IMG/VR virus record: IMGVR_UViG_3300032007_000057
Span: 1-64,000 of that record
Direction: 5' to 3' (one strand)
DNA length: 64,000 nt
Origin: a virus
Taxonomy: Duplodnaviria; Heunggongvirae; Uroviricota; Caudoviricetes
The first letter of the stretch is position 1. Each line of letters begins with the position of its first letter. The position numbers were made by a program, and so were the translations under genes. The notes beneath the pieces are model-generated. The model ran no database searches. It saw only the letters and a list, made by a program, of their open reading frames with translations, and was not told the origin of the DNA. Positions 5,185-58,323 of this stretch are shown piece by piece.

Positions 5185-5218
5185 AACTAGGGGACTATTG
5201 ATAGTCCCCTAGTTTTAT
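5185..5218. terminator. Rho-independent terminator (bidirectional)
   Basis: aactaGGGGACTAttgaTAGTCCCCtagtt perfect stem, flanked by an A-tract and a T-tract. Confidence 0.7.
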
Positions 5219-5224
5219 TAACAT

Positions 5225-5754: not shown

Positions 5755-5816
5755 CGTCTCCGTAGAGGCGAAAAGAGACCCTGACTGGAAGGGGTTTCTT
5801 TTTGCTTACTCTTGAA

Positions 5817-9274: not shown

Positions 9275-10270
9275 CTACCAACCTATATCATTAGGATCAT
9301 CAACTTTAATCCCAAAGATATCACAAAAATTAGAAATACGATCATCAACTGCAAATTCTTGCATTTTATTATAATTAATTCTAAACTTAGTTAAATCTAA
9401 TGTACCATTAGTAGGAATAGTAATACAATCTAACTTACCTTCTTTACCCATTGTACCAGATCGAACTAAATCTGTCAAGCGTCTTTGTGTATCTGAATCA
9501 AATTGACCTATATCAATTTCTTCCAAGTCAAATCTATAGCCTCTATCCATTACTCTAAAGGTACTTCCATAAATTGCATTATATACCAACATAGATTTAA
9601 CTGATCTTGGCAGTCTATCTTGGGCATAGTTTTCTTTATTCCAAGAACTTGGAATAGCACAATAAACTGTACCTGTTTTTAACTGCTCAACATATCTACC
9701 TCTATAATCATCAATCTTAGTGGTAAGCTCTTCTTTACTGATTCCTTTCTTAAGGATATGCTCAATAAAATCATTTAACATATCTCTGCTAAATTGAGGA
9801 TAATCAGATCTTACAACTTCTATACCACTAATACTGATTTTATCCAAAGGCTTTCCTTCTTTGGAAACTAACCAAATAGCATACTTCTTTTTGATTTCCA
9901 GAAACAAAGCTCTTCTAATAACAAGTTCCTGTTTAAAATTAAAGTTAAACTTTTTAGCCGAAGATTCTGTAGGAGATGTATTATGCATATTAAGAAGTTC
10001 ATGAATCATTACATTATTAATATACTGTGCTACAGATTCATTCAATTCAATAACTTTATCTATCTTTTCCTTGTCAGAAATTTCATCATAATCTTTTCCA
10101 TAAATTGCTTTCAATGCATCGCCATATTTAGTAAAAATTGAATCTGTATTATGAACTAATATGTCATTTGCAAAAAAACAATGATCATCATCTGGCATTT
10201 CAATATCATATACATCAATAGGTTCTTCTGGAGTAATCACTTCTATTGATTTAACACTCTCTATCTTCAT
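9275..10270 (-). CDS. DNA polymerase B C-terminal fragment, preceded by a split-intein C-half (IntC, about 41 aa)
   Basis: Starts MKIESVKS...VYDIEMPDDDHCFFANDILVHN|TDSIF. That is intein blocks F/G ending in HN, then the +1 Thr, which is the TDS half of pol motif C (YGD|TDS). A KKKYA (KKRY) motif lies further downstream. Confidence 0.8.
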   Translation of the reverse strand: MKIESVKSIEVITPEEPIDVYDIEMPDDDHCFFANDILVHNTDSIFTKYGDALKAIYGKDYDEISDKEKIDKVIELNESVAQYINNVMIHELLNMHNTSPTESSAKKFNFNFKQELVIRRALFLEIKKKYAIWLVSKEGKPLDKISISGIEVVRSDYPQFSRDMLNDFIEHILKKGISKEELTTKIDDYRGRYVEQLKTGTVYCAIPSSWNKENYAQDRLPRSVKSMLVYNAIYGSTFRVMDRGYRFDLEEIDIGQFDSDTQRRLTDLVRSGTMGKEGKLDCITIPTNGTLDLTKFRINYNKMQEFAVDDRISNFCDIFGIKVDDPNDIGW

Positions 10271-13870: not shown

Positions 13871-14581
13871 TTAAATTTTCTCCTTAGGGCAATCCTTAGT
13901 CCTATGCTTTTCAGTGCATTTTCCAAACCAGCACTTAGGACCACAACCAATAATCAACAAAGGAAACTGATTCTGGAAGATAATATAGATCCTATCAGCC
14001 AATTCTCTAATACCACTTTGAGCTCTCATACACATTCGCAATTCCATAAAGTGCCTAAGCTCTCTTAGATTCATAGTCATAACCAAAGAAGTCTGAGTAG
14101 CATTAGGAAGAATCTCTCTAGCATCTTCTTTAGGAATTCCATCTTCAATATATGCATTATACAAATCAAATGTATCCTTAAGATGCTGTTCAAACAAAGC
14201 CTGTGCATGAGGATTATTTTTAATTGATTCTGGGATAGTAAACTCTTCAGGTCGCATCGTAGTATATCTTTGACTTCTCTGAGAATAAGAAGCAATCCTA
14301 TGACGAACAAGCTGATGGCTAACACTTCTACTAATACCTTCAATAAAAAAGGTAAAATTAGCATGTTCAAGTGGAGATTCATGACCATTTTCCAGAAGCA
14401 TTTTTACCATCTTGTCTTGATACTCTTTATTTAAACACTTCTCTTTCAATTTGTCAAGAGTCAAATCTGAATAACATGTGGCAGCAGCTAAAGTAATTAC
14501 AAATTCAGGATCCTCAGTATTACTAATCAAAGTTACATTCATAATCGTCATCATCCCTTCTGATATCATATTTAAAGTCAT
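13871..14581 (-). CDS. thyX: Flavin-dependent thymidylate synthase ThyX
   Basis: ThyX signature RHRIASYSQRSQRY (RHR-x7-S...R). Start may be an internal Met, because the ORF overlaps the upstream gene by 59 nt. Confidence 0.85.
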   Translation of the reverse strand: MTLNMISEGMMTIMNVTLISNTEDPEFVITLAAATCYSDLTLDKLKEKCLNKEYQDKMVKMLLENGHESPLEHANFTFFIEGISRSVSHQLVRHRIASYSQRSQRYTTMRPEEFTIPESIKNNPHAQALFEQHLKDTFDLYNAYIEDGIPKEDAREILPNATQTSLVMTMNLRELRHFMELRMCMRAQSGIRELADRIYIIFQNQFPLLIIGCGPKCWFGKCTEKHRTKDCPKEKI

Positions 14582-18103: not shown

Positions 18104-20683
18104 TTATAAGGTGATTAGTTGGTCTGTTACAACTAATTCTGTTGGTTTAATTATAGTTTTAACATTATTTCTCATTACTACCAAACTATGATCTTCAGTT
18201 ACAGTGACTGTTTTTCCAGATTCAGTAGTAATCTTATACAGTTTCTTATTAGTTTTATGCTTCATCAGATACCTTGGGAAATAAAGTCTGTCATCATATC
18301 CAAGTACGCATTTATTAGGATTCTGAATATAATTTTTTCCGAGATAATGCCACACTTTATTATCCGAAGCACACATATCCCAAAGTTCTTTAATAGTTAT
18401 ATTACCTTTACCAGTTCTGATTAAAGAATCTCCAGTAACTGAATCTCCATAAATTACATTTGGTAGAGCTTGTTCTGATTGGTAATCCCAATCAAAAGGA
18501 ATATCTACATGGTCAAATTTATTAGATTTATTTTGAATCATTTGATTAATGCAATTATTAGCAACTACTGCGGCGATTTTAGCAATTTCTCTACCAGTAG
18601 AAGTAATACTTCTGGCAACCTCATAATCATACAATCTGAATCTAATATTGGACTGACCACCATAAAGAGAATTAGTAATGATCTTAACTGTTTTCTGCAT
18701 AGTATCATATCTGTCAACTAGCATTTGGTCTTTACCAATATTATCCTTCATAAGATCTTTATACTCTTTTCTCTTTTTAATGAGCATATCTACAATATCA
18801 TAAAGAACTGACTGCTTATCTTCATGCTTCTTAAAGATAGTGCCAATCTGGGTAATAATATACCCATTCTTAAGCATTCTTTCATGAAAACTTTTAGCAG
18901 ACAATTTATACAATCTCTCAATACCTTGAACTTTCAAATACAAACTTACATCTGTATTGGAATTAACAAATTCTTCTTTATTAAAGATATATTGTCTAGC
19001 AGTATCTGTATCAACTTTTCCTACATAGGTATCTGCACTAATGTTATATCTTGCCATAATGTATGGATAAAGAGAAGTAAGATCCAAATCACCCAACCAA
19101 TCATGTACACCGCTAATTGGTTCTCTAACATAAGCACCCGCAAACTTTTTCTTCTCAATTCCAGCTTTAACAATTTTGGCTACTTTATCTCTATCCATAA
19201 GATACTCATAAAGAATCCCATCACAAATATGTAGAGTAGTATAAATACTATCCCATGAGATATTAGCCAACTGGACTATACTAAAATTAAGGTCAATATA
19301 CTTCAACTTTTCATCCAATTTTCTTACAAGATGAACGTCGTTAATATTGTATGCAATAAACCTTTCAGGTTCTTCCCTAAAGATTTTATCCATGCCATCT
19401 TCAGTATCAAGTTTAGTAATACCCAACTCAATTTTAGAAATAGTTCCAAGCTTATAATTCTCTTTTTTACCAAGAGTTCTTTCCTTATAGCATCTTTGAT
19501 AATCAAGTGCTACAGAATAACCAATATGAGGAATACAATAAGTAACTTCCTCTTCATGTTTATTCATAACTGTTTTATATTCAATTTCAAAAGTTTTATT
19601 ATGAGCCAGTTTAGGATGTTCAATTCCTAAAAATTCTGCTCTATACTTAATATAAGGTAAATCAAATTCATCACTATTCCACCCAGATACTAGATCTGGA
19701 TCAAATTCTTTCAATAAACTGAAGAACTTAAGGAACATATCACTTTCTTTATCAAAGATTTCTACATTGAAAATACACTCATCTTTGTAATCAAGATATT
19801 CCTTAATTTGTTCAGTATTAATTTTAGCTTTGTTTAAATTATAGACCAAAGTATAATATTTGTCAGTATAATTATCATACAAAGTAATCAAGTTAACGGG
19901 AATAACTCTAGCTGACTTCTTAATATCAGCAAAGTCAATAATACCATATCCTTCTTGATACAACTCAATATCAACATAATTTACTCTAAGTTTATAATGA
20001 CCAAGATTATCTTTGTTTTCTTTTTTCCAAAGATAATTCTTATGAATAGCCAAATTAAAATCTACATTATAAATAGCTTTATAAGAAGATTCTGACTGAA
20101 TTTGTTCAATAATGTATTTTCTTTTACCATAATGTACCAGTTCACCTTTTAATCCTGCAATATCATGAACATCTAAATAATCATCTTTACCGGTATACAT
20201 CATAACCATATCATCAGTCTGAGTAATATATCTTTTATCACCAACTCTAATAACATATGCAAATTCCTTATTCACATAGTCTGAATAGAAGTTAAACAGC
20301 ATAGGCTTAGAATACCCATCAGTTGGCTTAGAATCTTCTTTCTCTTTAGAGCTATACAATTTATATTTACTCTTTTTATTAATAACTACATCAGTTTCTT
20401 TCTTTTTAGGTTTTTCTTCAATTTTGGGAAACACGGGTTTAACAGGAATATAATTAAACTTATAAATAGTGTTATACTTCTTATGTACTTTAGCAATATC
20501 TTCAATAGAATACTTATACGCATAAGGATTATTGAAAAGCTGATTCAATACAATAGATGTTTCAAAATCTTCTTCAGCTAAACTTAAAATAGAGGAAATC
20601 TTAAGAGACTTACATTCCTCTGGAAATGGCACATTTCCTTCAGTAGCTAACCATCTTATATATGTAGTTAGTGGTGAAGCCAT
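18104..20683 (-). CDS. DNA polymerase B N-terminal fragment (exonuclease plus pol motifs A and B) fused to a split-intein N-half (IntN, about 112 aa)
   Basis: Exo I VDIEL, motif A DLTSLYPYIM, motif B KIITNSLYGGQSN, then motif C cut at ...VIYGD|SVTGDSLIRTGKGNITIKELWD (intein block A with Ser1). Intein block B VTEDHSLVV follows. The ORF ends at the intein-half boundary. Confidence 0.85.
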   Translation of the reverse strand: MASPLTTYIRWLATEGNVPFPEECKSLKISSILSLAEEDFETSIVLNQLFNNPYAYKYSIEDIAKVHKKYNTIYKFNYIPVKPVFPKIEEKPKKKETDVVINKKSKYKLYSSKEKEDSKPTDGYSKPMLFNFYSDYVNKEFAYVIRVGDKRYITQTDDMVMMYTGKDDYLDVHDIAGLKGELVHYGKRKYIIEQIQSESSYKAIYNVDFNLAIHKNYLWKKENKDNLGHYKLRVNYVDIELYQEGYGIIDFADIKKSARVIPVNLITLYDNYTDKYYTLVYNLNKAKINTEQIKEYLDYKDECIFNVEIFDKESDMFLKFFSLLKEFDPDLVSGWNSDEFDLPYIKYRAEFLGIEHPKLAHNKTFEIEYKTVMNKHEEEVTYCIPHIGYSVALDYQRCYKERTLGKKENYKLGTISKIELGITKLDTEDGMDKIFREEPERFIAYNINDVHLVRKLDEKLKYIDLNFSIVQLANISWDSIYTTLHICDGILYEYLMDRDKVAKIVKAGIEKKKFAGAYVREPISGVHDWLGDLDLTSLYPYIMARYNISADTYVGKVDTDTARQYIFNKEEFVNSNTDVSLYLKVQGIERLYKLSAKSFHERMLKNGYIITQIGTIFKKHEDKQSVLYDIVDMLIKKRKEYKDLMKDNIGKDQMLVDRYDTMQKTVKIITNSLYGGQSNIRFRLYDYEVARSITSTGREIAKIAAVVANNCINQMIQNKSNKFDHVDIPFDWDYQSEQALPNVIYGDSVTGDSLIRTGKGNITIKELWDMCASDNKVWHYLGKNYIQNPNKCVLGYDDRLYFPRYLMKHKTNKKLYKITTESGKTVTVTEDHSLVVMRNNVKTIIKPTELVVTDQLITL

Positions 20684-28567: not shown

Positions 28568-28645
28568 TGGTCGGGTATGGAGGATTTGAACCTCCGACCC
28601 TCTGCTCCCAAAGCAGATACGCTAACCAGACTGCGCTAATACCCG
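28568..28645 (-). tRNA. tRNA-Pro (anticodon UGG), CCA encoded
   Basis: Minus-strand cloverleaf CGGGTAT...TCTGC-TTTGGGA-GCAGA...GGTTCAAATCC...ATACCCG-A-CCA. Confidence 0.75.
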
Positions 28646-28650
28646 TTTAG

Positions 28651-29187
28651 TTACTCTTTAAAATACAAATCCCCAGTTTTATCTCCATCAATCTTATGCA
28701 GAAATACCCAATCTAAAAACTCACAAGCAGTAGATCTTTCTTCTTCAGAACAATCACTACCATTAATATACTCATCAAACCATTTATAAAACAGTTTCTT
28801 TCTATTGAAAGTTGCATTAATACAACTACTAAGCATATCCAAGTCAATATCTTTAAGATCTGTTTTACCGGCGTTTTTCATTACAGCTTCAATAGTTTCC
28901 CTGATAGCCTTAACATTTTCTGGCTGATAATAACGTTCGGCATTATTAGTCACATTTTCACATTTATTTATAGTCATATTCATATTTGTTATCCCACTTT
29001 CTTTATATTGGTAATAATGATTGGGATACTTAAAGACCAAAACTCTAGCTTTATAGGGAGAGGTTTGATCTCTATCCCAATAAACTAGTTCCATTTCTAA
29101 AAGCTTTCTAGCTTCAAATGGAGTAATCTTGACACTATCTTTTTTAAACTCTGAATCAAATAACTTAATTGTTTTCTCCATACTCAT
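28651..29187 (-). CDS. Hypothetical protein (178 aa)
   Basis: ORF. Confidence 0.45.
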   Translation of the reverse strand: MSMEKTIKLFDSEFKKDSVKITPFEARKLLEMELVYWDRDQTSPYKARVLVFKYPNHYYQYKESGITNMNMTINKCENVTNNAERYYQPENVKAIRETIEAVMKNAGKTDLKDIDLDMLSSCINATFNRKKLFYKWFDEYINGSDCSEEERSTACEFLDWVFLHKIDGDKTGDLYFKE

Positions 29188-29261
29188 TATGGGTAGTCTC
29201 CTTTATATAAGGGTGATTGTCTCTGCTTTTTTAATCAAGAAAAAACAGGTCAAAAAGAAAA

Positions 29262-29295
29262 GGTTTGAGGGGAATTTCACCCCTCTGAGAGGTAT
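29262..29295 (-). terminator. Rho-independent terminator
   Basis: GAGGGGaatttcaCCCCTC stem. On the minus strand it is followed by TTTTCTTTTT. Confidence 0.5.
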
Positions 29296-29488
29296 TAAAT
29301 TTTAAACTAAAAAGCCATAGGAATATACGCAGCTTTATAAGTCTGTTGCTTAGTTGATCAGTATCTAAGCTATCTGGAAGATGCGAAGACCTATGGTTAA
29401 TTCTTTAAAAGGCTATAGGAATATCAGTACTCAAATGATCAGTTTAAGTAGTCTATCTGATAGACCTATAGTCAATGCTTATCTATTA

Positions 29489-30097
29489 TTAGGGCCACTC
29501 ACCAAGAGGCTGTCCAAGAAGACCCTGCTGAGGAACCCCTTCAAGAATCTCCTTGAATTCAATCTTATCGTAATTGGAATACACACTGATAAGAACAACC
29601 CTGTTAGGATTACCCTTAGTCATAGCCTCAGGAGAAAGCACCATCTCTGTTTCACCAGCAAAGACGTACTTCACACCATTGACAACCTGTGTACCAATAA
29701 GTGCAAAAACTGAAACATTACTACCAACAAATCCAGCAAGATTATCCTCAAGAACCTTCATGGCCTCTTCAGGAATATCAGTAGTAGGATTAATCTGAAC
29801 CCCACCCATCTTACCAGAGTCAGACAGGACATTGGTAATCTCCACAATACTGAACTTATCATCCTTCTCATTAAGAACAATAAGAACCACATTATGAACA
29901 TCATTTCCAGTAATCATGGTCTGTGTAGCAAGAATAGCATGATTAACTCCAGAAACAACCTTACTACCAAGGTATGCAATCACATTATACTCAGCACCAA
30001 CCATATTACCAAAAATCTCTGTAAATGCGGAAGCAACCTTCTGAGGAAGCTTACCGGGAACAACATGAATCTCATAACTACCCAACATAAATATCAT
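29489..30097 (-). CDS. Hypothetical protein with internal tandem domain duplication (202 aa), moderately GC-rich
   Basis: Two repeats of ..KVVSGVNHAIL...G..VHNVVLIVL / ..QVVNGVKYVFAG.......NPNRVVLISV. Confidence 0.5.
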   Translation of the reverse strand: MIFMLGSYEIHVVPGKLPQKVASAFTEIFGNMVGAEYNVIAYLGSKVVSGVNHAILATQTMITGNDVHNVVLIVLNEKDDKFSIVEITNVLSDSGKMGGVQINPTTDIPEEAMKVLEDNLAGFVGSNVSVFALIGTQVVNGVKYVFAGETEMVLSPEAMTKGNPNRVVLISVYSNYDKIEFKEILEGVPQQGLLGQPLGEWP

Positions 30098-30422
30098 ATC
30101 CTTTCTTATTTATTTTTATCAAAAATAAAAGCTTTTATCAACATTACAATTATAAAAATTATAACTACGTATTGTATATATGGCAATAACTTTATTGAAC
30201 TATCAAATACTCCTGATAACCAGGAAAAGAATACATCAAACATACAATGTATGCACTACCAAGTTATGTTTAGTAGTATCTACTTTCTGTGGATAAGGAT
30301 CTTCATTATTCTTAAATCTCTGATACTGAAGATCTTTATACTCCTTCTTCTTCACCATTGTTCTAGTACCTGTACTGTCTTCTGTAAAATACCATTCAGT
30401 CATGTTATACATCAATCCTTTC

Positions 30423-30593
30423 TTAAGGCATATCAACTTCGTCTACATAAAGAACAATTTCCTCATTACCATAGCTATCACCAGTTGCTGAAATACTTGA
30501 TTCATCATAAAGTTGCTGAACTGAATCAAAATAGCTCTCAGAAACCTCAACTCTATGCCCTTCATCAGTTTTAAGATAGTATTTAGCAGACAT
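30423..30593 (-). CDS. Hypothetical small acidic protein (56 aa)
   Basis: ATG at 30593 with an upstream SD-like AAAGGGTG. Not in the supplied ORF track because it is under 60 aa. Confidence 0.3.
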   Translation of the reverse strand: MSAKYYLKTDEGHRVEVSESYFDSVQQLYDESSISATGDSYGNEEIVLYVDEVDMP

Positions 30594-30617
30594 ATTAACT
30601 ACACCCTTTCTTTTCTT

Positions 30618-31454
30618 TTATGTTACTGTAAATGTTTTTGAAATATCGTATTGTTCGTTCTGCCACCACGCATCCATTCCTACTCGAAAGTCTATACGGA
30701 CTGTATGTTCACCAACATCACTTACAGAGGCAGGGTCTGGAGCTGTCCAACTTCCAGAAGCAGTTAAACTATTATAAGTCTGAGAATATACCCGATTTTC
30801 ATCATAGTATAAAGTTATAGAATTAAGTTGATATCTAGTTTGTTGAACTGTATACGGAACAAAATCCCATTCAACATATGCACTTTCACCAACCGATATA
30901 TTATTAACCCTTAACACCATACCCTTGTATCTGCCTTCACCTTCTCTATACGAAATATCAACGGTCCTTACGTTATCATTGTTGTCTTCTCTAACATAGG
31001 TGTTAAACAAATCTATTATACGATTATAACAGCTATCTGCCGGTCTACTTGATAAATAAATACTATAAAATGAATCTTCACCATAATCATAATAGGTTAA
31101 AGTTTCTCCGTCATAATTAAATGTTTGATCGATATATGGAAAATAAATAGAAAAAGAGCCTAAATGGGCTATGTCAGGATCAGAGCAATATGCTCTTAGT
31201 TCAAACCATCCCATATCGGGAGGAGTATTATAATAAGGATCGTCTCCATTGCCATATGTACCGTAAGCTGACGCAGCTGGTTTACCAATTAAACGATCAT
31301 TTATAACTAAAACAATTTTAAATTTTTCAGATTTATTTTTAATAACAAACCCAACACTAATAGTCGAATCATAAGTTTGTGCTTCCGCAAAGGTCATTCT
31401 GTATATCTTATACTCATCTTTCCCCCCATTCAACAAAAGAGGTTTTGTAAACAT
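30618..31454 (-). CDS. Hypothetical protein (278 aa), possibly structural
   Basis: ORF. Tyr/Asn/Asp-rich beta-like composition. Confidence 0.45.
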   Translation of the reverse strand: MFTKPLLLNGGKDEYKIYRMTFAEAQTYDSTISVGFVIKNKSEKFKIVLVINDRLIGKPAASAYGTYGNGDDPYYNTPPDMGWFELRAYCSDPDIAHLGSFSIYFPYIDQTFNYDGETLTYYDYGEDSFYSIYLSSRPADSCYNRIIDLFNTYVREDNNDNVRTVDISYREGEGRYKGMVLRVNNISVGESAYVEWDFVPYTVQQTRYQLNSITLYYDENRVYSQTYNSLTASGSWTAPDPASVSDVGEHTVRIDFRVGMDAWWQNEQYDISKTFTVT

Positions 31455-31523
31455 TGATAAACACTCCTTTTATAAGTTTTATATTTGTAAGAACTAGGTA
31501 AACTAGTTTAAAAGTCAAAGGTA

Positions 31524-31599
31524 TGGTGGACTCGCTGGGGTATGATCCCAGAACCTGGCGATTATAAGTCGCCTACTCTACCAATTGAGCTACAAGTCC
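31524..31599 (-). tRNA. tRNA with anticodon read as UAU (Ile2-like). Anticodon assignment tentative.
   Basis: Minus strand: GGACTTG acceptor, GGCGA-CTTATAA-TCGCC anticodon arm, GGTTCTGGGATC T-arm, CGAGTCC-A-CCA. Confidence 0.65.
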
Positions 31600-31608
31600 A
31601 TGTAATAA

Positions 31609-31695
31609 TGGTGCCCAGGGGGGGACTCGAACCCCCACGCCAGAGATGGCAAGGGATTTTAAGTCCCTTGTGTCTACCTATTCCACCACCTGGGC
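31609..31695 (-). tRNA. tRNA-Leu (anticodon UAA), type II with long variable arm
   Basis: Minus strand: GCCCAGG acceptor, AGGGA-CTTAAAA-TCCCT, long extra arm, GGGGGTTCGAGTCCCCC, CCTGGGC-A-CCA. Confidence 0.75.
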
Positions 31696-31717
31696 ATTTA
31701 ACTATTTTTATATTTTA

Positions 31718-31794
31718 TGGAGCCCCTAGGAAAAGAGTTGAACTTCCATCACTTCTTTACAAGAGAAGTATAATAGCCGTTATACTATAGGGGC
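31718..31794 (-). tRNA. tRNA-Thr (anticodon UGU)
   Basis: Minus strand: GCCCCTA acceptor, CTTCT-CTTGTAA-AGAAG, GGAAGTTCAACTCTTTTCC, TAGGGGC-T-CCA. Confidence 0.7.
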
Positions 31795-31963
31795 AAATAA
31801 ATCTTATTTGTAGTCTACATCACTCAAAAGATTTAGGAAAGTTCTATACTATATTTTACTTCTGATTAACAGAGAGTGCTCCATCCTTAGCTATAGTATA
31901 GATAGATGGTTAAAAGGTGTAGATCTTTCAATAACTACTTACTGAAGACCTTTATCCAGGAAA

Positions 31964-31992
31964 ATTATATCAGCAGTATAGTTATTTGTCAA
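31964..31992 (-). promoter_or_regulatory. Perfect consensus sigma70 promoter (TTGACA-17-TATAAT) driving the tRNA cluster
   Basis: Minus strand: TTGACAaataactatactgctgaTATAAT, about 170 nt upstream of tRNA-Thr. Confidence 0.6.
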
Positions 31993-32544
31993 GTACAAAA
32001 CTGACTCACTTATTTATATGATCTACATGACCCTAAGAATAGGTCATTTGTGTAGTACTTTCGATGACTTTAATGGGCGTAATATATGTACTACAATCCT
32101 TTTCCCCTTTCAATCAAAGGATGACAGTTTCTTACCACTTGCAGTAACCTGACAACTCTCCGGAATCCTCCACTCAACACTGCTCTAGCTTCTACTAAAG
32201 GTGGCTCAACATTAAGTTTCATAGGATAACTACTACCTCAAGTGTAGTAGGTTCTAACAGTTTTTATAAAGTCTATCCCTTAGCCAAGGTAATTTTTATT
32301 GAGGGTTACATTCCCTAATAGACTTCTATCCTACTTATGCCAAATGAAGACATTACAATCTTCTAAGTAGATCAGCCTTTATTTACTGTTATTTCCCAAG
32401 CACTGATTTGGGTGAAAGGATTTTAATTGTAACTCATTTTAGGTTACAATTTAATTTTTAATGGCTCCTCCTGGTGGTTACGCTCCACCGTATACGGTTT
32501 AACAGACCGCCACTCTACTATTGAGTTAAGGAGGAATTAGAACT

Positions 32545-32639
32545 GGCTCTGGAGCCCCGATTCGAACGAGGATGAGAAAGGAGGTCCCTTTACTTACTGA
32601 TCCAAAGTCAGCTGTTTTTCCAATTAAACTACTCCAGAG
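32545..32639 (-). ncRNA. Atypical tRNA-like element. 8-bp acceptor stem, long variable arm, anticodon loop CTTTGGA (UUG).
   Basis: Minus strand: CTCTGGAG...GTTT-AATTGGAA-AAAC...GCTGA-CTTTGGA-TCAGT...AAAGG-GACCT-CCTTT...CCTCGTTCGAATCGGGG...CTCCAGAG-CC. Canonical T-loop GTTCGAATC. Non-standard combination of features. Confidence 0.3.
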
Positions 32640-32782
32640 TTAAATTATCAAGGGTTCACTTAAGACTCGCACTTAAGATCTTCAGCTTTCACATTTTCCT
32701 AATTATGCTCTAGAAGCATACATAGAAAACACTACTCAGTGAGATTTTGCTATTTAAACTATGAACCATGTCCAACAAAGAT

Positions 32783-32811
32783 ATTAAAGCATACTGACAA
32801 GAATTTGTCAA
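32783..32811 (-). promoter_or_regulatory. Sigma70-like promoter (TTGACA-17-TTTAAT) inside the ORF-free region, pointing at the tRNA-like element
   Basis: Minus-strand TTGACA, 17 nt, TTTAAT. Confidence 0.45.
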
Positions 32812-33503
32812 GAGGTGATTTTAAAAATTTTATGGCAGGTCCACTACCGCTTGCAGATAGTTCTGAAGTTTTGGAGACTCCTGTTTTACTACATAAACTA
32901 TGGACCCATCAATATTTGTTCAAAAAATTTTAGGTGTGGAGAGAAGTAATGAGGTACTCCTCCCCACTTCAAAGGAGAACGATCATGAGCGGAAAAATAT
33001 ATAGATACTTGATAGCTGTGAGGTATGTTCAGACTCAGACTCTGTTTAAATAGTACAGACCTTTATTCACAGATTTACATAATAATTACCAGCTACTTAC
33101 TATTAGCGAACGAGTTTACGTTATATTAAAGCTAATGTGATTTCACTAAGTAAATCTTAAGTGAGGTTCGACCAAGCCTCTTCATAGGGTCTAACTACTA
33201 AATCAACAATACTAACTACTCCCTACTCAGTAAAGTCTTACTCAATCCAAGATAAAATAGTCATCAATCAAAGACTATTATTTGAAATTAGATGTAAGGC
33301 TTTCTAGTCTCAGGAAAATTGAGAGAAAAGCATTGTTATTATATCGTCACATTTCAGGTGTGAAAATATAATTAGATAACTTTGCGGTCATCTAAATATT
33401 AGGAGAGTATCTTTCTTATTTTTACATGAATAAGATACTCAGAAAATCATGAAACAGAGTATTTAGAACTTTCACCAAGTATCAAATCTTTAAGTACTAA
33501 AAC

Positions 33504-34172
33504 TTAGTACTCAATTTCAATAGTGGTAGTTGCGTTAGAAACCTGAAGTGCTGAATCAACATTGAGTTCAAACTGATCAATCTCAATACTAAGAGCGTTA
33601 ATCTTCTTATTAATATCAATAGGATCAATAAGAACTGGCTGATTCTCCATATTGTACTTTTTCTTAAAGGCCATGATAGCATCTGTATTGATATTGGTTT
33701 TATCCTTATTACCATACAGGGTCTCAATGGTTTTTTCAAGTCTCTGTTCAGCTTTTTTAGTATCCTCTTCAAGCTGACTCTGTGCAAACTGAAGCTGAGT
33801 CTGAAGAGTATTAAGAAGCATTTTCTTAGTCTTAAGCCCATACTTCATCTGATAAATTGCTTCAGCAACAGTCATTTCCTTACCACCAACATTAATGATG
33901 GTTTCAGCATTAGACTTACTGATAGCAGCTTTAATAGCATCAACTCTTCTAATCAGATCAGTAACTGCCTGATAATTACTGCTTACCTTAGAACTAAAAT
34001 CCTGAATTGACATTCCATCAATTCTAAAATTATCATTAGTAGGATTATTATTTACAGCCACATACCTATTGCTAAAACTAGTGTACTGCATAATTTTCTT
34101 ATCTGCAAGTTTGACCTCACAAAGCGCCTTATGAATAGTCATCTTCTCAGTAGTCATTGCTTCAACCTCCAA
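33504..34172 (-). CDS. Hypothetical coiled-coil protein (222 aa)
   Basis: ORF. The 33497..33841 ORF is an alternative frame. Confidence 0.5.
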   Translation of the reverse strand: MEVEAMTTEKMTIHKALCEVKLADKKIMQYTSFSNRYVAVNNNPTNDNFRIDGMSIQDFSSKVSSNYQAVTDLIRRVDAIKAAISKSNAETIINVGGKEMTVAEAIYQMKYGLKTKKMLLNTLQTQLQFAQSQLEEDTKKAEQRLEKTIETLYGNKDKTNINTDAIMAFKKKYNMENQPVLIDPIDINKKINALSIEIDQFELNVDSALQVSNATTTIEIEY

Positions 34173-34182
34173 ATAATAGTTT

Positions 34183-34320
34183 TTACTTAACTCTCTTAAA
34201 ATAAACTACAACACCAGCAATAATAACAAGCAAAGCTACAAGAACTGCACTGGAAGTAATAGGATTAGCAGCTACAGTATTCTTAGCAGCGGTAAGCCAA
34301 GTAAACGCATAATTCAACAT
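34183..34320 (-). CDS. Small hydrophobic protein (45 aa)
   Basis: ATG at 34320 preceded by SD GAGGAGG. One clear TM helix (AVLVALLVIIAGVVVYF). Confidence 0.4.
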   Translation of the reverse strand: MLNYAFTWLTAAKNTVAANPITSSAVLVALLVIIAGVVVYFKRVK

Positions 34321-34392
34321 GTTTAAATTCCTCCTCATAATAAATACTAAGTCTATAAACTCTTACTAATACTACTTTAGTAAGTTTAGGAC

Positions 34393-34478
34393 AGAGGGCA
34401 GGAGACTCGAACTCCCAATACCTTTTCAGGTATGCCTGTTTTCAAGACAGGTTCCTTAACCAATTTGGATAACCCTCT
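34393..34478 (-). tRNA. tRNA-Ser (anticodon UGA), type II
   Basis: Minus strand: AGAGGGT acceptor, CCTGT-CTTGAAA-ACAGG, long variable arm, GGAGTTCGAGTCTCC, GCCCTCT-G. Confidence 0.65.
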
Positions 34479-34574
34479 ATATTAGGGGGAGTAGAATGTA
34501 ACCAAGACCTCCCCATTTTAGGAGATTACATTTTTAAATATTATACTTCTCCCACCAGTCACATTCTAATAATG

Positions 34575-35624: not shown

Positions 35625-35751
35625 ATGCTATTGCTAAAGCTAAAATTGGAGATAACAGTACTATAAAAAATACTGAAAATAGTCCAAAGATTACCTTATA
35701 GATATGCATACCAATAAAGTTTTTAACGATTGTCATATGGGAAAACCTCAA
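35536..35751 (-). CDS. Small membrane protein (71 aa) with acidic C-terminus
   Basis: TM helix. Overlaps both neighbours in other frames. Confidence 0.3.
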   Translation of the reverse strand: MRFSHMTIVKNFIGMHIYKVIFGLFSVFFIVLLSPILALAIAYVLFGDSRYLEYINPNTNGLFEEEEGDQD

Positions 35752-37156
35752 CTAACTTACTCCTAAGAGCTAAATATTTTTCATTATCTAATAAGGCATT
35801 ATTTTTGATACCTTTTACTTTAAGCTTATCTAATTCAGTTTGATTATTAAATCTAATAGGCATATTCTCTAATGTGAAACCTAACTTAGCAAATCTAGTA
35901 TACAGCTCTTTACATTCATCACATTCACCACAAAGAGTATAATTGCCAAACGTATCTCTATGAAAGTGCTCACATTTAGATTTAAACTTCATAAAGGGTA
36001 TATTCAAATATAACCCTAATAGCAATATCTCTTCAGATTGAAGATTCTTAAATACTGGGGTATAGGTAGAACCTTTATTAAATCTGGTTAAATGAGTATA
36101 TAAATCAATCTCATCTAAATCGTTAGTATAGTCAATATAGTTTACTTTAAACTGATGAAAAAGAGGGTTTAATAAGTGCTCTTTTAATAATGGTGCATTT
36201 ACAATATTAAAAGTATCTATATTGAATGATTCCGTTAATAATGTAAATTCATCTTCACCTATACAATTATAGTCATTGATATTAATCTTGATCGGATGAT
36301 AAAGTTCATTAACTAAATATGGTAAAATAAAAGATTCTATACTGCCATCATAATTACAAGTTAAAACATACTTATTATTAATACTAATTGGATCATCAAT
36401 ATAGATTTGTTTAAAAGCAAATCTACCATCGATCTTAATAGTATAAACTGTCCTGTTTTCAATATTAGAAGAGCTATTTAATTGATACTCTGTAGATGGT
36501 ATATTATCGGAACTAATGAATATAGATTGGTCATCTATATGAACATAACTAGTTCTATTACTGTTAAATAGATAAATGTTATTGGCAGGTGCTTCATATA
36601 AAACTATTGAAAAGTTACCAGTAGTATTCTTCAGTACTTCTTCTAAGCCCATTAAAATATTATTTCTATGAGCTTGAATGTACATATCCAATTGATCTAA
36701 TAAAGTTTTTATATCAACTTCTTTAAATTGATCAGAATTTCTATGAGCCTGAATGTACATATCTAATTGATCTAAAGACTTTATATCAACTTCTTCAAAT
36801 CGATCAGAGGCAATTTTTTGTTTAGGAATGCCACTTACTAATAGATATAAAATATTATCTTTATTAACTAAATTGGATTCGTTAGTATTATTAGCTCCAA
36901 TTAAAACGGTATTCCTAAAGAAACTGTTATTCGATGATCTGTTAATAAGATTATACATATCACCTTTAATCTTGATAATATCATTACCTAATTTGTTTAA
37001 GCTATTAACAACCAGATTAACGTTATTACCAGTATTAACTATTGAACTAAATAAAGTTTTAAAAGTAGATTTATTAGAACTAAGATCTGTATTGAATAAA
37101 TGTACTAATAAAAAACTGGATCTTTTAGTATCCATCACTGTAATCCTCCATAACAT
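35723..37156 (-). CDS. Hypothetical protein (477 aa) with an in-frame tandem repeat and a C-terminal CGECDECK Cys cluster
   Basis: Repeat DIK(S/T)L(L)DQLDMYIQAHRN appears twice, from a roughly 60-nt DNA tandem duplication at about 36660-36800. Confidence 0.5.
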   Translation of the reverse strand: MLWRITVMDTKRSSFLLVHLFNTDLSSNKSTFKTLFSSIVNTGNNVNLVVNSLNKLGNDIIKIKGDMYNLINRSSNNSFFRNTVLIGANNTNESNLVNKDNILYLLVSGIPKQKIASDRFEEVDIKSLDQLDMYIQAHRNSDQFKEVDIKTLLDQLDMYIQAHRNNILMGLEEVLKNTTGNFSIVLYEAPANNIYLFNSNRTSYVHIDDQSIFISSDNIPSTEYQLNSSSNIENRTVYTIKIDGRFAFKQIYIDDPISINNKYVLTCNYDGSIESFILPYLVNELYHPIKININDYNCIGEDEFTLLTESFNIDTFNIVNAPLLKEHLLNPLFHQFKVNYIDYTNDLDEIDLYTHLTRFNKGSTYTPVFKNLQSEEILLLGLYLNIPFMKFKSKCEHFHRDTFGNYTLCGECDECKELYTRFAKLGFTLENMPIRFNNQTELDKLKVKGIKNNALLDNEKYLALRSKLVEVFPYDNR

Positions 37157-37379: not shown

Positions 37380-37736
37380 TTAATGCGCAACTAATAACCC
37401 AGATTTGGTAGCTGCGGAGGATGTAGCTACTGTTAAACCTGTGGTAGCTTGGATATACTCATTTAAGATACCCTGATCAATATCTTTTTCATCTATAGAC
37501 CAGCCAATTTGATTTTTATAAATTTTAACTGGTGCATCTGTACTACTCAATGCGCTGCTTAACATAAACGGGACAATTGCAGCTGCTAACCCTTGAGGTG
37601 TAGGCTGTTTCATAAATGTCTTCAGCTTTTTCATAATATAAAATTCTGAAGTTTCATCTATGACCGTGCCTAAATGCTCATCTGTCCCTTGGGCATAACC
37701 GAATAAAAGCTTGTATTCTTGCATGTGTAAATACAC
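37380..37736 (-). CDS. Hypothetical protein (118 aa), first gene of the leftward transcription unit
   Basis: ORF. A promoter lies just upstream. Confidence 0.45.
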   Translation of the reverse strand: MYLHMQEYKLLFGYAQGTDEHLGTVIDETSEFYIMKKLKTFMKQPTPQGLAAAIVPFMLSSALSSTDAPVKIYKNQIGWSIDEKDIDQGILNEYIQATTGLTVATSSAATKSGLLVAH

Positions 37737-37770
37737 ACTCCTTATTTTTAAAATCTTAGTTTCTGGTTAT

Positions 37771-37799
37771 ATTAAAGCATAACTAAAATATTTTGTCAA
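37771..37799 (-). promoter_or_regulatory. Sigma70-like promoter (TTGACA-17-TTTAAT), leftward
   Basis: Minus-strand TTGACAaaatattttagttatgcTTTAAT. A second TTGACA lies at about 38022 on the minus strand. Confidence 0.5.
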
Positions 37800-38107
37800 G
37801 TATAAAATTAATTTTTCGAAGAAAATTATAAGAATTAAATTTTTTCAGCTGGGTCAATTCAGTGGGTTTACCCCCAAATCAGATTTTTGACCTTTTGAAT
37901 AAAATTTTATATTTGATTTTAAAAGTCTTTGCTGAAGCTTGTTCTTTTATCAGAATTTAATTTTGTTTTGCTTAATAAAAATTTAGCTTTCAGTAATCAT
38001 TTTACATAACTCTTTCATTTTGTCAAGAGGGTAAAATTTAAGTCCTTGGTAATTATTTATTAGGTTTTAACTTGAAAAAAAAAAAATAATAGTTTAACTT
38101 TCAGTAA

Positions 38108-38151
38108 GAGAGTAAGGAGTCGTCGTCTTGAAAAGACGACTCCTTACTCTC
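38108..38151. other. Long near-perfect hairpin (about 18-20 bp stem, GAAA loop) followed by an A/T tract
   Basis: gagagtaaggagtcgtcgtcttGAAAagacgactccttactctc, then tattattatatattttttta. Confidence 0.6.
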
Positions 38152-38194
38152 TATTATTATATATTTTTTTATAGTAGTAGGGAAATGGTAAAAC

Positions 38195-38585
38195 GGTGGA
38201 TAACTCTCTTTTGAAAGTTATGTGCTACGATGGTTGCGTTTTTGTTACTAAACATAAACGGTGGATAACTCTGTGGATAACTCTGTGGATAACCTATTTT
38301 TAGGTTGCATGGGTCATAAAATATAATATTTTATATCATATACTATAAAACATGGCTTAAGCCATTGAGAATACTGAGGTAGCGTAATATTGCCTGAATA
38401 TTCTGTGAATGCAGCGTTATAGTTTACATTGTGGATAACTTTTGACTGAATTGTATGCATCTGTAATTTTTAGATTAAAACTAGTTTAAAGATATTAGTA
38501 TACATTAAATAAGTTTAAATTATAGATAGTTAAATATAAAAACTGTTTGAGGCGGTTGTGGATATGTGGATAAGTATGTGGATAA
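38195..38585. promoter_or_regulatory. Cluster of about 8 DnaA boxes (TGTGGATAA = TTATCCACA), an origin-like region at the strand switch
   Basis: ggtggataa at 38196 and 38260. tgtggataa at 38273, 38285, 38430 and 38577. gtggatatgtggataag at 38557-38573. All in the same orientation within an ORF-free AT-rich region. Confidence 0.6.
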
Positions 38586-38713
38586 CTTGAGATGAAATTT
38601 GCATATATATTATATAAGAGTCCTTTGTCTTTTATTAAAGACAGGGTTATTAAAATAACCTACTATTGTAGGATGATTTTATAAATATTCTTTCATACAA
38701 GGGAGTAGATATA

Positions 38714-53261: not shown

Positions 53262-53337
53262 GCCTCGCCATAGTTCAATGGAAAGAATCCGGGTCTTCTA
53301 AACCCATGATCTCAGTTCGATTCTGAGTGGCGAGGCC
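53262..53337 (+). tRNA. tRNA-Arg (anticodon UCU)
   Basis: GCCTCGC acceptor, GGGT-CTTCTAA-ACCC anticodon arm, TCAGTTCGATTCTGA T-arm, GCGAGGC-C. Confidence 0.65.
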
Positions 53338-53402
53338 AGTATTTATCAATATTTACATGCTGTTAACAAAATCTAAAATAGAAAGGCAGTGGTAATGACC
53401 CT

Positions 53403-56158: not shown

Positions 56159-56695
56159 ATGGCTGGATACTTAGATATTAGTATTAAGTTAGATGAAGAC
56201 TTTGTTGAATGTCTTAAAGGATTAAAGAAAGAATACGGTAATAAATTAACTATACTCAATGGTTTGAGTAATAGCCAATTAAATAATACAGAATTTATAG
56301 ATAACTTTGTTGATAAGAATACCTCCACAGCAGATGCATCTATAGATGGTAATGCTAATGCAAGTACTAAAGATATCTGCTCATTAATGGTAGAAATGAG
56401 AAAACCAGAACTTAAGCTTGAATCATTTAATAAAATATTCTATGAGTTAAAGAAGAAGTATGGTGTTGAAGTAGCTAGAGACTGGTTAAAGAATGAGTGG
56501 GATGGGCACTTTTATAATCATGATGCCTACAGTACTAGCTTTTTGCCTTACTGCTTTGCTTATGATTTAAAAGATCTGGCTGAGAAGGGGTTGTATTTTA
56601 TTAAGGACAACTTTAACCATCAACCACCACAGCATTTAACTACCTTTACAGACTTTGTTGGAGAATTCGTGTCCTATATGAGCAATCGTGGATAA
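56159..56695 (+). CDS. nrdD: Anaerobic ribonucleotide reductase NrdD, exon 1
   Basis: FYNHDAYSTSFLPYCFAYDLKDL...VGEFVSYMSNRG aligns with the T4 NrdD region HVHDIDYSPALPFTNCCLVDLKG...QYGG. The frame stops exactly where the conserved sequence should continue. Confidence 0.65.
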   Translation: MAGYLDISIKLDEDFVECLKGLKKEYGNKLTILNGLSNSQLNNTEFIDNFVDKNTSTADASIDGNANASTKDICSLMVEMRKPELKLESFNKIFYELKKKYGVEVARDWLKNEWDGHFYNHDAYSTSFLPYCFAYDLKDLAEKGLYFIKDNFNHQPPQHLTTFTDFVGEFVSYMSNRG

Positions 56696-57069: not shown

Positions 57070-58323
57070 GTGAACCAAAGTTCATTTACAAATTTTACTA
57101 TTTTTGATAGAGAATATTTTGAAGCACTTTTTGGAGATAAAACCTTCCCTGATGGAAGTTATATGATTGATTTTGAGGAAGAGTTTATTAATTATGAAAA
57201 GGCGTTTATGAAAGTTGTGTCAAAGATTAGAGAAACTAATATGATGACATTCCCAGTATTAACCTTTTCATTGCTTAGAGTTGATGGTAAGTTTATAGAT
57301 GAAGAATTTGCAAGGTTTGCTGTGCAGCATAATATGCGTTGGAATGACAGCAATTTCTATATTTCTGAGGATGTGACAAGTCTCAGTAACTGCTGTAGAC
57401 TGGTCTCTGACATTAATACTCCCTTCTTTAACAGCATTGGGGGCACAGCATTAGAAGTAGGATCTATTAAGGTTAATACAATTAATCTTGCTAGAATTGC
57501 ATATGAAACCAATACTAAAGAAGAGTATATGAAATTATTAGAAGAAAAAACTATTTTGTGCTTACAGACATTGGATGTAATTAGACACATTATAAAGAGA
57601 AATATTGAAAAAGGATTACTTCCAAATTATTCTTGTGGAGCACTTCATTTGGAATCTCAGTATAATACTATTGGTATTATTGGCATATATGAGGCAATTC
57701 AGAAGTTTGGTTTTACCTATAAAGATGAATTTGGTAATACCTTCTATACTGATGAAGGACTTCAGTTTGCCAAAGATTTTATGCAGAAGATGATTGATGT
57801 TAAGACTGAATTTGCTAAAGATAAGGATTATATGATTAATATTGAACAGATTCCTGGAGAAAGAGCTGCGGCTGTTCTTATGCAGAAAGATCAGATATTC
57901 TTCCCAGATGAAGCTTATGAGTTACCACTGTATGGAAATCAATTTATACCATTAGGTGTTAAGACTACTTTACAAGAAAAAGTCAGAGTGTCTGCGGTAT
58001 TAGATGCTGCCTGTTCAGGCGGTTCAATACTGCACGCAAACGTTGATGCACCTATACATGATTTTGATACTGCATGGAGATTGATTAACTATATTGCTGA
58101 TAGTGGCGTAAAGTACTTTGCTTTATGTGTAAGGATTAGCACCTGTAAAAATAACCATGCATATTATGGGTCCAGGTGTCCAATCTGTGGAGATCCTACA
58201 GAAACCACATGGCAGAGAATAGTTGGCTTTTTAACACCAGAGAAATCATACTCTAAAGAAAGAAAGGCTGAATTTGCTTTGAGAGATTGGTTTAAAATTA
58301 ATGATATGGGAGAAACCTTTTGA
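57070..58323 (+). CDS. nrdD: Anaerobic ribonucleotide reductase NrdD, exon 2 (Zn-ribbon and glycyl-radical region)
   Basis: NCCRLVSD, TALEVGSIKVNTINLARIA, C-terminal CVRISTC...CPICG and RIVGFL (glycyl-radical-like). Confidence 0.65.
   Translation: MNQSSFTNFTIFDREYFEALFGDKTFPDGSYMIDFEEEFINYEKAFMKVVSKIRETNMMTFPVLTFSLLRVDGKFIDEEFARFAVQHNMRWNDSNFYISEDVTSLSNCCRLVSDINTPFFNSIGGTALEVGSIKVNTINLARIAYETNTKEEYMKLLEEKTILCLQTLDVIRHIIKRNIEKGLLPNYSCGALHLESQYNTIGIIGIYEAIQKFGFTYKDEFGNTFYTDEGLQFAKDFMQKMIDVKTEFAKDKDYMINIEQIPGERAAAVLMQKDQIFFPDEAYELPLYGNQFIPLGVKTTLQEKVRVSAVLDAACSGGSILHANVDAPIHDFDTAWRLINYIADSGVKYFALCVRISTCKNNHAYYGSRCPICGDPTETTWQRIVGFLTPEKSYSKERKAEFALRDWFKINDMGETF

Follow-up and report, generated by a model that had tools for sequence, protein, structure and literature searches.

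A candidate oriC-type replication origin with a conserved unwinding module and an adjoining palindrome on a jumbo phage

The replicons P1 oriR, F, pSC101 and RK2 carry iterons that are bound by a Rep protein encoded by the element itself, with DnaA as an accessory factor. Origins of the oriF and oriG type in phage T4 consist of a promoter with a downstream unwinding element; they are primed by an R-loop and carry neither DnaA boxes nor DnaA-trios. The subject of this study is a gene-free gap in 64,000 nucleotides of Caudoviricetes DNA (IMG/VR record IMGVR_UViG_3300032007_000057, positions 1 to 64,000; this whole stretch is referred to as the window), in which DnaA boxes, DnaA-trios, an A/T-rich tract and a long palindrome together form a candidate DnaA-dependent replication origin.

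The basal unwinding system (BUS) is laid out as DnaA boxes, a short G/C-rich gap, DnaA-trio repeats and an A/T-rich region, the DnaA-trio being 3'-GAT-5' and appearing as 5'-TAG-3' on the strand that has TGTGGATAA as its box (PMC10201434, PMC8287927). The published search rules allow up to 2 mismatches in the box, require at least 3 NAN trios within 16 bp, and ask for a second box with up to 4 mismatches; the most common published trio-to-box spacing is 13, and of the two boxes B. subtilis requires the trio-distal one (PMC8287927).

Among phages, the T5 family has an iss region, large and untranslated, with eight conserved DnaA boxes and inverted repeats. These boxes form pairs 3 bp apart within inverted repeats, face both orientations, and lie in the terminal repeat, away from the mapped origins (bioRxiv 10.1101/866236). 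A 'predicted OriC' of phage G, at positions 1-406 and 611-986, was default Ori-Finder 2022 output given with no test of conservation and no comparative test (PMC12484599). Full-text literature searches on DnaA-trios in phages, on DnaA boxes in jumbo or huge phages and on host DnaA in phage replication returned no description of a conserved phage BUS. Two jumbo-phage overviews, a comparative study of 2021 and a review of 2026, make no mention of DnaA, and the 2026 review mentions no replication origin. The replication origins of jumbo phages are essentially unmapped.

DnaA boxes and unwinding core of the gap

It is fairly probable, judged from the sequence, that the gap is an oriC-type, DnaA-dependent replication origin placed between divergent early promoters. 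The gap covers 37728-38713 (986 bp), from the start of a leftward gene at 37727 to the ATG of a rightward gene at 38714, and the only ORFs that overlap it are two of 48 aa, a size expected by chance. An earlier note on this DNA had described an ORF-free stretch between a leftward and a rightward unit, holding a cluster of about eight co-oriented DnaA boxes. The gap was confirmed and exactly eight boxes were found, every one on the + strand; the cluster lies where it had been placed, although some box starts had been given one base too late.

The enrichment of boxes was strong. Eight boxes with at most 1 mismatch were observed in the intergenic region, vs 0.3 in shuffles. The extended word GTGGATAAC occurs 6 times in the window, all copies within 38196-38586 (expectation, 0.30; maximum, 2 among 100 shuffles), and exact TGTGGATAA is found elsewhere in the window at two positions only, 6332 (-) and 30288 (+). 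Compared with TTATCCACA at up to 2 mismatches, the box at 38195 has 1 and five further boxes are exact. The boxes are arranged as a first good box, a tandem cluster (cluster II), a single box and a last group (cluster III) about 130 bp upstream of the first rightward gene (Table 1).

A full bacterial BUS, overlooked in the earlier note, lies to the left of the first good box. On the + strand the order is palindrome, ATTATTATATATTTTTTTA, TAG TAG TAG, GG, a degenerate AATGGTAAA, AC and GGTGGATAAC, in agreement with every one of the published BUS search rules (PMC8287927). The three TAG trios stand on the strand and the side seen in chromosomal origins, and 14 bp separate the last trio from the start of the good box (38195). 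The second box is a borderline case, with 4 mismatches in AATGGTAAA after GGG. Beyond the trios lies a pure A/T tract of 19 bp, part of a 22-bp run (38152-38173) that is the longest of its kind in the window and agrees with the A/T tracts reported before. Rare features are crowded within 480 bp: this longest A/T run, one of the only two occurrences of TAGTAGTAG in the window, one of its two long perfect hairpins and all six copies of GTGGATAAC. No dnaA was found in the window or in the related loci. The element therefore has the make-up of something that would work like a BUS, yet it appears to be no chromosomal oriC.

Conservation of the module and of its palindrome

Relatives were found through the 640-aa protein of the right flank, the hairpin core (as a pattern scan of metagenomes), the family of the 118-aa protein of the left flank and an alignment-based scan of IMG/VR. 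Nine distinct relatives were compared (L004, L009, L010/L011, L014, L015, L016-18, L020 and L144), with flanking proteins 43-82% identical. The intervening sequence has diverged among them, and the order of the elements is kept in all nine: CTTTCAG, palindrome, A/T tract, trios, G-rich 4-mer, TGTGGATA[A/T]GTGGATAAC, 43-78 bp, and 2-4 tandem boxes. Most relatives share the core string TAGTAGTAG-GGGC-TGTGGATA[A/T]GTGGATAAC. Trios of the TAG/CAG/TAA type stand at the same place in all relatives, number 3-6 and are followed by a 12-bp spacer to the box pair. The proximal box of the relatives is a clean TGTGGATA, and the G-rich gap is GGGC, AGGC or GGAC. The 25 nt beyond the trios have an A+T content of 76-92% in the relatives, vs a mean of 0.84 in bacterial BUS. 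Of this family the window departs furthest from the canonical form, with a decayed proximal box and the distal box kept. The identical window sequence was recovered in at least three independent assemblies.

The boxes outside the core were more variable. Each region contains 5-9 boxes, vs 0.2-0.5 in shuffles, and 45 of 51 boxes share one orientation. Every relative has 2-4 tandem boxes spaced by 11-12 bp, at 43, 53, 65-66 or 78 bp from the box pair, distances that suggest steps of roughly one helical turn in this small sample. The position of cluster III is not conserved: boxes of both orientations are present in L010, L011 and L015, and none in L004 and L009. Overall, the BUS core is constant, and clusters II and III differ among relatives in how many boxes they have, where these lie and which way they face. 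The location at the strand switch, also proposed earlier, holds for the window; in L004 and L016 the element is not at the switch. Both have two extra leftward genes between the element and the strand switch, and the element therefore travels with the left-flank operon rather than with the switch.

The core was also compared with bacterial chromosomes by scanning the pattern TAG-N4-TGTGGATA[A/T]GTGGATAA on one genome per bacterial species. Matches were obtained in at least 120 species, and those listed span Bacillaceae, Lachnospiraceae, Clostridia, Chloroflexi, Poribacteria, Thermus/Meiothermus, Rubrobacter and others. A dnaA gene was detected by tblastn inside the 8-kb locus for 53 of the 120 matches listed, in most cases a few hundred bp from the boxes and reading toward them. 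The A/T-rich and (TAG/TAA)n context of these loci lies on the far side, in the orientation seen in the phage. The phage core is thus the canonical chromosomal module in its canonical orientation, and the oriC-like, DnaA-dependent origin that had been proposed for this region gains support from a complete, correctly oriented and conserved BUS matching dnaA-linked chromosomal origins. Use of the BUS string as an identifier of the host was rejected, the motif being common to many phyla.

The A/T tract is abutted by a palindrome whose arms occupy 38107-38124 and 38135-38152. A hairpin had been noted at this place with a 20-bp stem; the hairpin is present, and its stem consists of 18 perfect pairs plus a few past a bulge. 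Folded as single-stranded DNA, it reaches -20 kcal/mol (z = -7.5). Only two perfect hairpins of at least 14 bp exist in the window; the other, at 5180-5219, is terminator-like. All relatives carry stems of 17-22 bp. The closer ones keep the palindrome sequence (GGAGTCGTCGTCT...AGACGACTCC), with compensatory changes in the outer stem, and in L016 (GGGGTTGTTGTT...AACAACCCC), L014 and L144 the sequence is entirely different. Because such stems persist with differing sequences, selection appears to act on the structure and not on the sequence. Among the dnaA-linked bacterial BUS, none of 53 has a stem of at least 12 bp, and perfect hairpins within 110 nt reach 8 bp at most; by this comparison the long palindrome looks like the phage's own addition to the chromosomal module.

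The palindrome may be either cruciform-forming DNA or a bidirectional terminator. An intrinsic terminator is a G+C-rich stem-loop with a U run directly behind it. The palindromes of L009, L020 and L014 have the classic A-run/T-run bidirectional shape of a terminator. In the window, AUUAUUAU... follows the stem on the + strand and no U run adjoins it on the - strand, and a terminator scan did not call the window palindrome; that of L144 has an A/T-rich stem and would be a weak terminator. On the side of an origin element, the palindrome always abuts the unwinding tract and is absent from the dnaA-linked chromosomal examples (0/53), and in L014 and L144 it is A/T-rich and stands directly against the trios, at the place expected for the unwinding element. 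No conserved promoter reading into the hairpin or the BUS was found, promoter-like matches being as frequent as expected by chance in A/T-rich DNA. We lean slightly toward a DNA element of the origin, or a dual role with termination.

Candidate function and rival explanations

The phage probably starts its replication by borrowing DnaA. DnaA-ATP would bind the trio-adjacent box (38195) and the phased boxes (38260-38292, 38430 and 38557-38585), the latter raising the local occupancy of DnaA, and a DnaA oligomer would extend from the proximal boxes onto the strand bearing 5'-TAGTAGTAG-3'. The trios and the adjoining 19-bp A/T tract (38153-38171) would then melt, as in the BUS of Bacillus subtilis, and the bubble would end at the 18-bp palindrome (38107-38152). 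The palindrome may fix or stabilise the open state by extrusion of a hairpin or cruciform, or insulate the origin from transcription. It may also mark the site of helicase loading, for which the host helicase and the phage DnaB-like helicase (6280-7971) are candidates. The phage replisome (family-B polymerase, clamp loader and primase) would then take over in both directions. The sequences themselves show that all BUS elements are present, ordered, oriented and deeply conserved and that they are identical to those of chromosomal origins; we infer that DnaA binds and unwinds this DNA, what the palindrome does, where DnaA comes from and that replication starts at this site. The genetic context fits an origin: genes for replication flank the element on both sides (DnaB-like helicase, PolB, helicases, clamp loader, primase and UvsX). 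Titration of DnaA and control of promoters are likely side effects of the element.

Several points weigh against an origin. Conserved boxes alone do not prove one. The trio-proximal box of the window is degenerate, and its three trios are the reported minimum. The one-base overlap of the box pair in the relatives (8-bp offset) is a putative working arrangement, although bacterial origins have it as well. The window covers 64 kb of at least 288 kb, and another origin or a phage DnaA could lie elsewhere. The GC skew, which the earlier note had named as a check, was of little help. The cumulative minimum does fall at 37-38 kb in the window, and at the same element in L157; in L004, two leftward genes that lie beyond the element on its right have a skew that matches the way they read (overall, -0.15 to -0.17; third-position, -0.14 and -0.02) and not the side on which they stand. 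Because the skew tracks coding direction, as L004 shows, it is compatible with an origin, is not independent evidence and was rejected as an independent origin test; the L004 result is neutral to slightly negative for an origin.

The rival explanations share the DnaA boxes and differ in what these would do. The element might bind DnaA without origin function, as a sink for host DnaA in the manner of datA or the DnaA-box clusters of Bacillus, or as a switch of the divergent early promoters. Eight high-affinity boxes per copy would titrate DnaA strongly once the phage is amplified, the boxes lie among promoter-like elements (one just downstream of the block at 38418-38438, and cluster III upstream of the first rightward gene), cluster II of L144 is about 25 bp upstream of a TTGACA-16-TACAAT promoter, and T5 has conserved boxes away from its origin. 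For these roles, however, oriented trios at 12-14 bp, a G-rich spacer and an A/T tract are needless. Because the trios, spacer and A/T tract are the best-conserved parts, and the BUS core is constant where clusters II and III vary among relatives, a pure sink or operator is disfavoured; a titration locus consists of high-affinity boxes with no unwinding module, and here a module of trios and A/T tract is attached. This explanation is considered unlikely. The same origin could instead be served by a DnaA homologue of the phage or by another phage initiator recognising TGTGGATAA, which is quite unlikely. Most of the replisome is phage-encoded, the 64 kb examined are a fraction of a genome of at least 288 kb, and phage DnaA homologues do exist, since PHROGs contains families of 'DnaA-like replication initiation protein', one of which (phrog_5484) gave a weak AAA+ match here. 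On the other hand, tblastn with an approximate B. subtilis DnaA query, which detected the 53 bacterial dnaA genes, found no homologue, either in the window or across roughly 200 kb of related loci. None of the 50 scanned window ORFs matched a Rep, a DnaA-like initiator or a helicase loader, and the motif is identical to the host-type consensus, spacer and trios included. The 118-aa and 477-aa flanking proteins were rejected as initiator or loader, as sequence searches were empty and their models (Sm-like and amidotransferase-like) are unrelated to initiation. An iteron-type origin is not indicated either: no iterons were found, the sole repeat family of the box region being the 9-bp DnaA box at 11-12 bp spacing, and the flanking genes (118-aa, 477-aa and unknowns) have no Rep-like match.

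Two further explanations concern how the DNA enters the cell or the record. An injection-stop or membrane-anchoring site, at which membrane-bound DnaA would hold the incoming DNA as proposed for the T5 iss, is very unlikely. The combination of eight boxes with a palindrome in about 1 kb of non-coding DNA does recall the T5 family region. The T5 boxes, however, are paired in inverted repeats near the genome end and lack trios and an unwinding element, whereas a co-oriented BUS is found here, amid replication genes and, within the 64 kb, away from any terminal repeat; the T5 model, too, is a proposal. That the region is a passenger, a piece of host oriC captured recently, or else a chimera of assembly, is extremely unlikely. 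The core string is indistinguishable from those of bacterial origins, and the 'Bacteriophage sp.' record MT836067, which has the motif, looks like a fragment of a bacterial origin (it resembles L110). This reading is largely refuted by conservation: the identical sequence appears in at least three independent assemblies, the architecture recurs in nine diverged relatives from different samples with phage-specific flanks and a palindrome not found in the bacterial examples, and no dnaA or dnaN is nearby.

If the oriC-type origin is real, the status of the host initiator would gate phage replication, and an uncultured phage family would have a concrete origin. A minimal module, with three trios and a degenerate proximal box, joined to a palindrome absent from chromosomes, bears on how opening by DnaA is coupled to helicase loading. 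DnaA dependence, if true, suggests a route for host defence or phage engineering. A stronger version of the reading remains tentative, and its truth is rather doubtful: here, host DnaA would be shown a faithful mimic of a BUS, a palindromic unwinding element of the phage would pass the open DNA to the phage helicase and primase, the boxes would drain host DnaA, and capture of the module would be widespread.

Surroundings, other phages and known systems

The coordinates of the core, the neighbouring elements and the genes named in the text are collected in Table 1.

Table 1. Features of the gap and of selected genes, in window coordinates.
Feature	Position	Strand	Details
Long palindrome	38107..38152		18-nt perfect arms, 10-nt centre; abuts the unwinding element
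Predicted DNA unwinding element	38153..38171		A/T-only ATTATTATATATTTTTTTA, 19 bp; adjoins the palindrome
Three DnaA-trios	38172..38180	+	TAG TAG TAG (3'-GAT-5' read away from the boxes), then GG(G)
Trio-proximal box pair	38184..38203	+	AATGGTAAA (4 mismatches), AC, GGTGGATAA (1 mismatch)
DnaA box	38195-38203	+	GGTGGATAA, 1 mismatch
Box cluster II	38260..38292	+	three tandem boxes 12 bp apart: GGTGGATAA, TGTGGATAA, TGTGGATAA
DnaA box	38260-38268	+	GGTGGATAA, cluster II
DnaA box	38272-38280	+	TGTGGATAA, cluster II
DnaA box	38284-38292	+	TGTGGATAA, cluster II
DnaA box	38430-38438	+	TGTGGATAA, single
Box cluster III	38557..38585	+	TGTGGATAT, TGTGGATAA, TGTGGATAA; starts 8 and 12 bp apart
DnaA box	38557-38565	+	TGTGGATAT, cluster III
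DnaA box	38565-38573	+	TGTGGATAA, cluster III
DnaA box	38577-38585	+	TGTGGATAA, cluster III
Putative leftward early promoter P_L1	37770..37799	-	TTGACA (37799-37794), 17-nt spacer, TTTAAT preceded by TG
Inverted repeat	37851..37897		TGGTCA...TTTTTGACC; between the two leftward promoters
Putative leftward promoter P_L2	37999..38026	-	TTGACA, 16-nt spacer, TAAAAT; 11/12 consensus positions
23-nt direct repeat, second copy	38085..38107	+	AATAATAGTTTAACTTTCAGTAA; first copy 37974-37996
Conserved block	38394..38438	+	palindrome CTGAATATTCTG (CTGAATATTCAG in relatives), TGCAGCGTTATAGT, box at 38430
118-aa protein	37380-37727	-	first gene of the leftward operon; ATG at 37727
477-aa protein	35723-37156	-	syntenic with the origin-like element
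DnaB-like helicase	6280-7971		member of the phage T4-like replication set
Family-B DNA polymerase pieces	18104-20683 and 9275-10270	-	two genes

Two putative promoters point leftward. P_L1 would act as a promoter: its -10 region, ATTAAAGCA on the + strand (37771-37779), is about 40 nt upstream of the ATG at 37727, and TTTGTCAA and ATTAAAGCA are among the most conserved columns in 8 relatives. P_L2 was the top-scoring promoter-like site of the scan. As the total of such sites in the region equals chance, the argument for P_L2 is its conservation and not the scan, TTTGTCAAG and the -10 being kept in all relatives. The inverted repeat between them, with both ends kept in 7/8 relatives, could be an operator or leader element. 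A common RNA fold for the GGTCA...TGACC element was sought in a weak test, with only 4/7 sequences on target, and none was convincing. The 23-nt direct repeat (family D4, 87% identity) ends in CTTTCAGTAA; one copy lies at the likely P_L2 start site, and the other abuts the palindrome, its CTTTCAG part directly to the left. TAATAG...CTTTCAG is kept in 7/8 relatives.

The conserved block to the right of cluster II, a 12-bp palindrome with TATAGT, is kept in 6/8 relatives; its box is present only in the window, L010 and L011. One reading of the block is a rightward promoter combined with an operator and followed closely by a DnaA box, a weak assignment given its poor -35. In L144, cluster II is followed at about 25 bp by a good rightward promoter (TTGACA-16-TACAAT). 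DnaA boxes thus stand among promoter-like elements, and DnaA occupancy therefore likely influences early transcription too. Searches of the region for known RNA families gave sub-threshold generic hairpin matches only. In L010, an insert of about 330 nt (5570-5900) after the origin-like region is G+C-rich, looks highly structured and has no window counterpart; no Rfam match was found for it at E <= 0.01.

The window, with a G+C content of about 30%, comes from a jumbo phage, because its proteins occur on contigs of up to 288 kb. No near match to it was found among the cultured phages of INPHARED, two single-protein scans of IMG/VR found no relative, and the hairpin-core pattern had no match in IMG/VR. 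Phage hallmark genes include tail-fibre proteins, an endolysin and a virion protein. The T4-like replication set is spread across both arms around the gap and, besides the DnaB-like helicase, includes a family-B polymerase in two pieces, helicases, a clamp loader, a primase and UvsX; further genes encode an SbcD-like nuclease, a Cas4-like nuclease, RusA, thymidylate synthase and NrdD/NrdG. Its strong GGAGG ribosome-binding sites, together with promoters of the TTGACA type, hint at a Bacillota-like host.

The two flanking leftward genes were analysed further. The 118-aa protein, 43-82% identical among relatives, always adjoins the origin-like element; it was modelled as an Sm/LSm-like barrel (pLDDT 76; top match 3by7_C, target-normalised TM-score 0.82, E = 0.02). 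The 477-aa protein has an invariant CxxCxxC (residues 409-415). Its low-confidence model (pLDDT 66) combines a class-II glutamine amidotransferase with a PP-loop ATPase, AsnB/QueC-like, and by this model it may be an enzyme of nucleic-acid or nucleotide modification. The left-flank operon is syntenic in those relatives whose left flank was recovered.

Other observations were made along the window. The two polymerase genes are about 8 kb apart and cover phrog_262 profile positions 16-571 and 577-768; a transposase-like gene, thymidylate synthase and others separate them (11162-12646 (-); 13871-14581 (-)). The anaerobic ribonucleotide reductase NrdD is likewise split, at 56159-56695 (+) and 57070-58323 (+). 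Its N-terminal piece matches profile positions 2-170 and its C-terminal piece 685-973, the middle being absent from both ORFs; an intron, an intein or a genuinely split gene could account for this. Eight or nine tRNA genes are present (28568-34479 (-) and 53264-53338 (+)), several unusually long (~90-95 nt). One, at 32652-32745 (-), has a CTA anticodon (amber suppressor, 'Pyl' per ARAGORN); despite it, the ORF statistics of the window give no clear sign of TAG reassignment.

Similar motifs were observed on other phages. At least 16 genomes of gut Microviridae/Gokushovirinae match the BUS core in non-coding DNA. In the three that were inspected (KT264804.1, 3304-4141; MG945381.1; PQ006258.1; loci L162, L163 and L165), the match lies beside or just after the gene of the replication protein (VP4). 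The gokushovirus KT264804.1 has an A/T-rich stretch, (TAG)5, GGTGC, TGTGGAAATGTGGATAAC, 43 nt and four tandem boxes; one microvirus shows the same layout with variant TGTTGATAA boxes, and another has five tandem boxes right after the Rep gene. None of the papers returned by a full-text search for Microviridae with DnaA describes such a module in its title or abstract. Eight unrelated IMG/VR contigs (L146, L147, L151, L152, L154, L156, L158 and L160; G+C 38% to 69%) have trios, TGTGGATATGTGGATAA and a second box cluster, with no dnaA nearby. Phage genes were seen in the four that were scanned: portal, terminase and protease in L147, RecT and an exonuclease in L152, a portal in L158 and a DnaD-like replisome organiser in L160. 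These matches suggest that BUS on phages extend beyond the present jumbo-phage family, and the module in Microviridae and other phages hints at a general, overlooked class of phage origins.

Two sets of matches are of another kind. Five IMG/VR contigs of high G+C content (66-70%; L148, L149, L150, L159 and L161) share CTTGACTTCGATGCAACGTACAGGTTCATAGGAGCTGTGGATATGTGGATAAC, a promoter-like TTGACT element followed by a DnaA-box pair, without trios, which may be a DnaA-controlled promoter rather than an origin. The record MT836067.1 ('Bacteriophage sp.', 20.9 kb; H12/L164) has a BUS flank closely resembling that of the dnaA-linked bacterial locus L110 and is probably a misfiled fragment of a bacterial origin, a caution for surveys of phage BUS modules.

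Compared with the described systems, the element resembles P1 oriR, F, pSC101 and RK2 in being part of a mobile replicon with consensus DnaA boxes by an A/T-rich unwinding region and in its partial dependence, here a predicted one, on host DnaA. Unlike in those replicons, no iterons or Rep were found in the window, and the DnaA part is a complete chromosomal module with trios. With the T4 oriF/oriG origins it shares a T4-like replisome, UvsX and a promoter-rich intergenic region by an A/T-rich unwinding element, and the window hairpin could end a short origin transcript; unlike there, no conserved promoter into the unwinding element of the window was identified. The T5 iss, too, is a stretch of non-coding phage DNA, about 1 kb long, with some eight conserved boxes and inverted repeats, kept family-wide; it differs in lacking trios and the layout of an unwinding element, and its proposed role is in DNA entry and not in replication. 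Phage G is similar by description only, as a very large phage of a Bacillota host with DnaA boxes, a spacer and a DnaA-trio (PMC12484599).

The closest likeness is to the chromosomal BUS. The incC-type BUS of B. subtilis (DnaA-boxes 6/7, GC cluster, DnaA-trios and AT-rich region) has the same element order and orientation as the phage, 12-14 bp separate the trios of the phage from the better box (published mode, 13), additional phased boxes are nearby, and the core of the relatives agrees letter for letter with that beside dnaA in Bacillaceae, Lachnospiraceae, Clostridia, Chloroflexi, Thermus and others. Unlike the chromosomal BUS, the phage element has no dnaA/dnaN neighbour, contains 3-6 trios vs a median of 6 in the 53 bacterial examples, has a perfect palindrome of 17-22 bp that abuts or replaces the A/T tract, and lies between divergent phage early promoters, and its prospective user is a phage-encoded T4-like replisome. 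The unwinding module is thus known from chromosomes, and what is new is the same module on a phage with a palindrome added.

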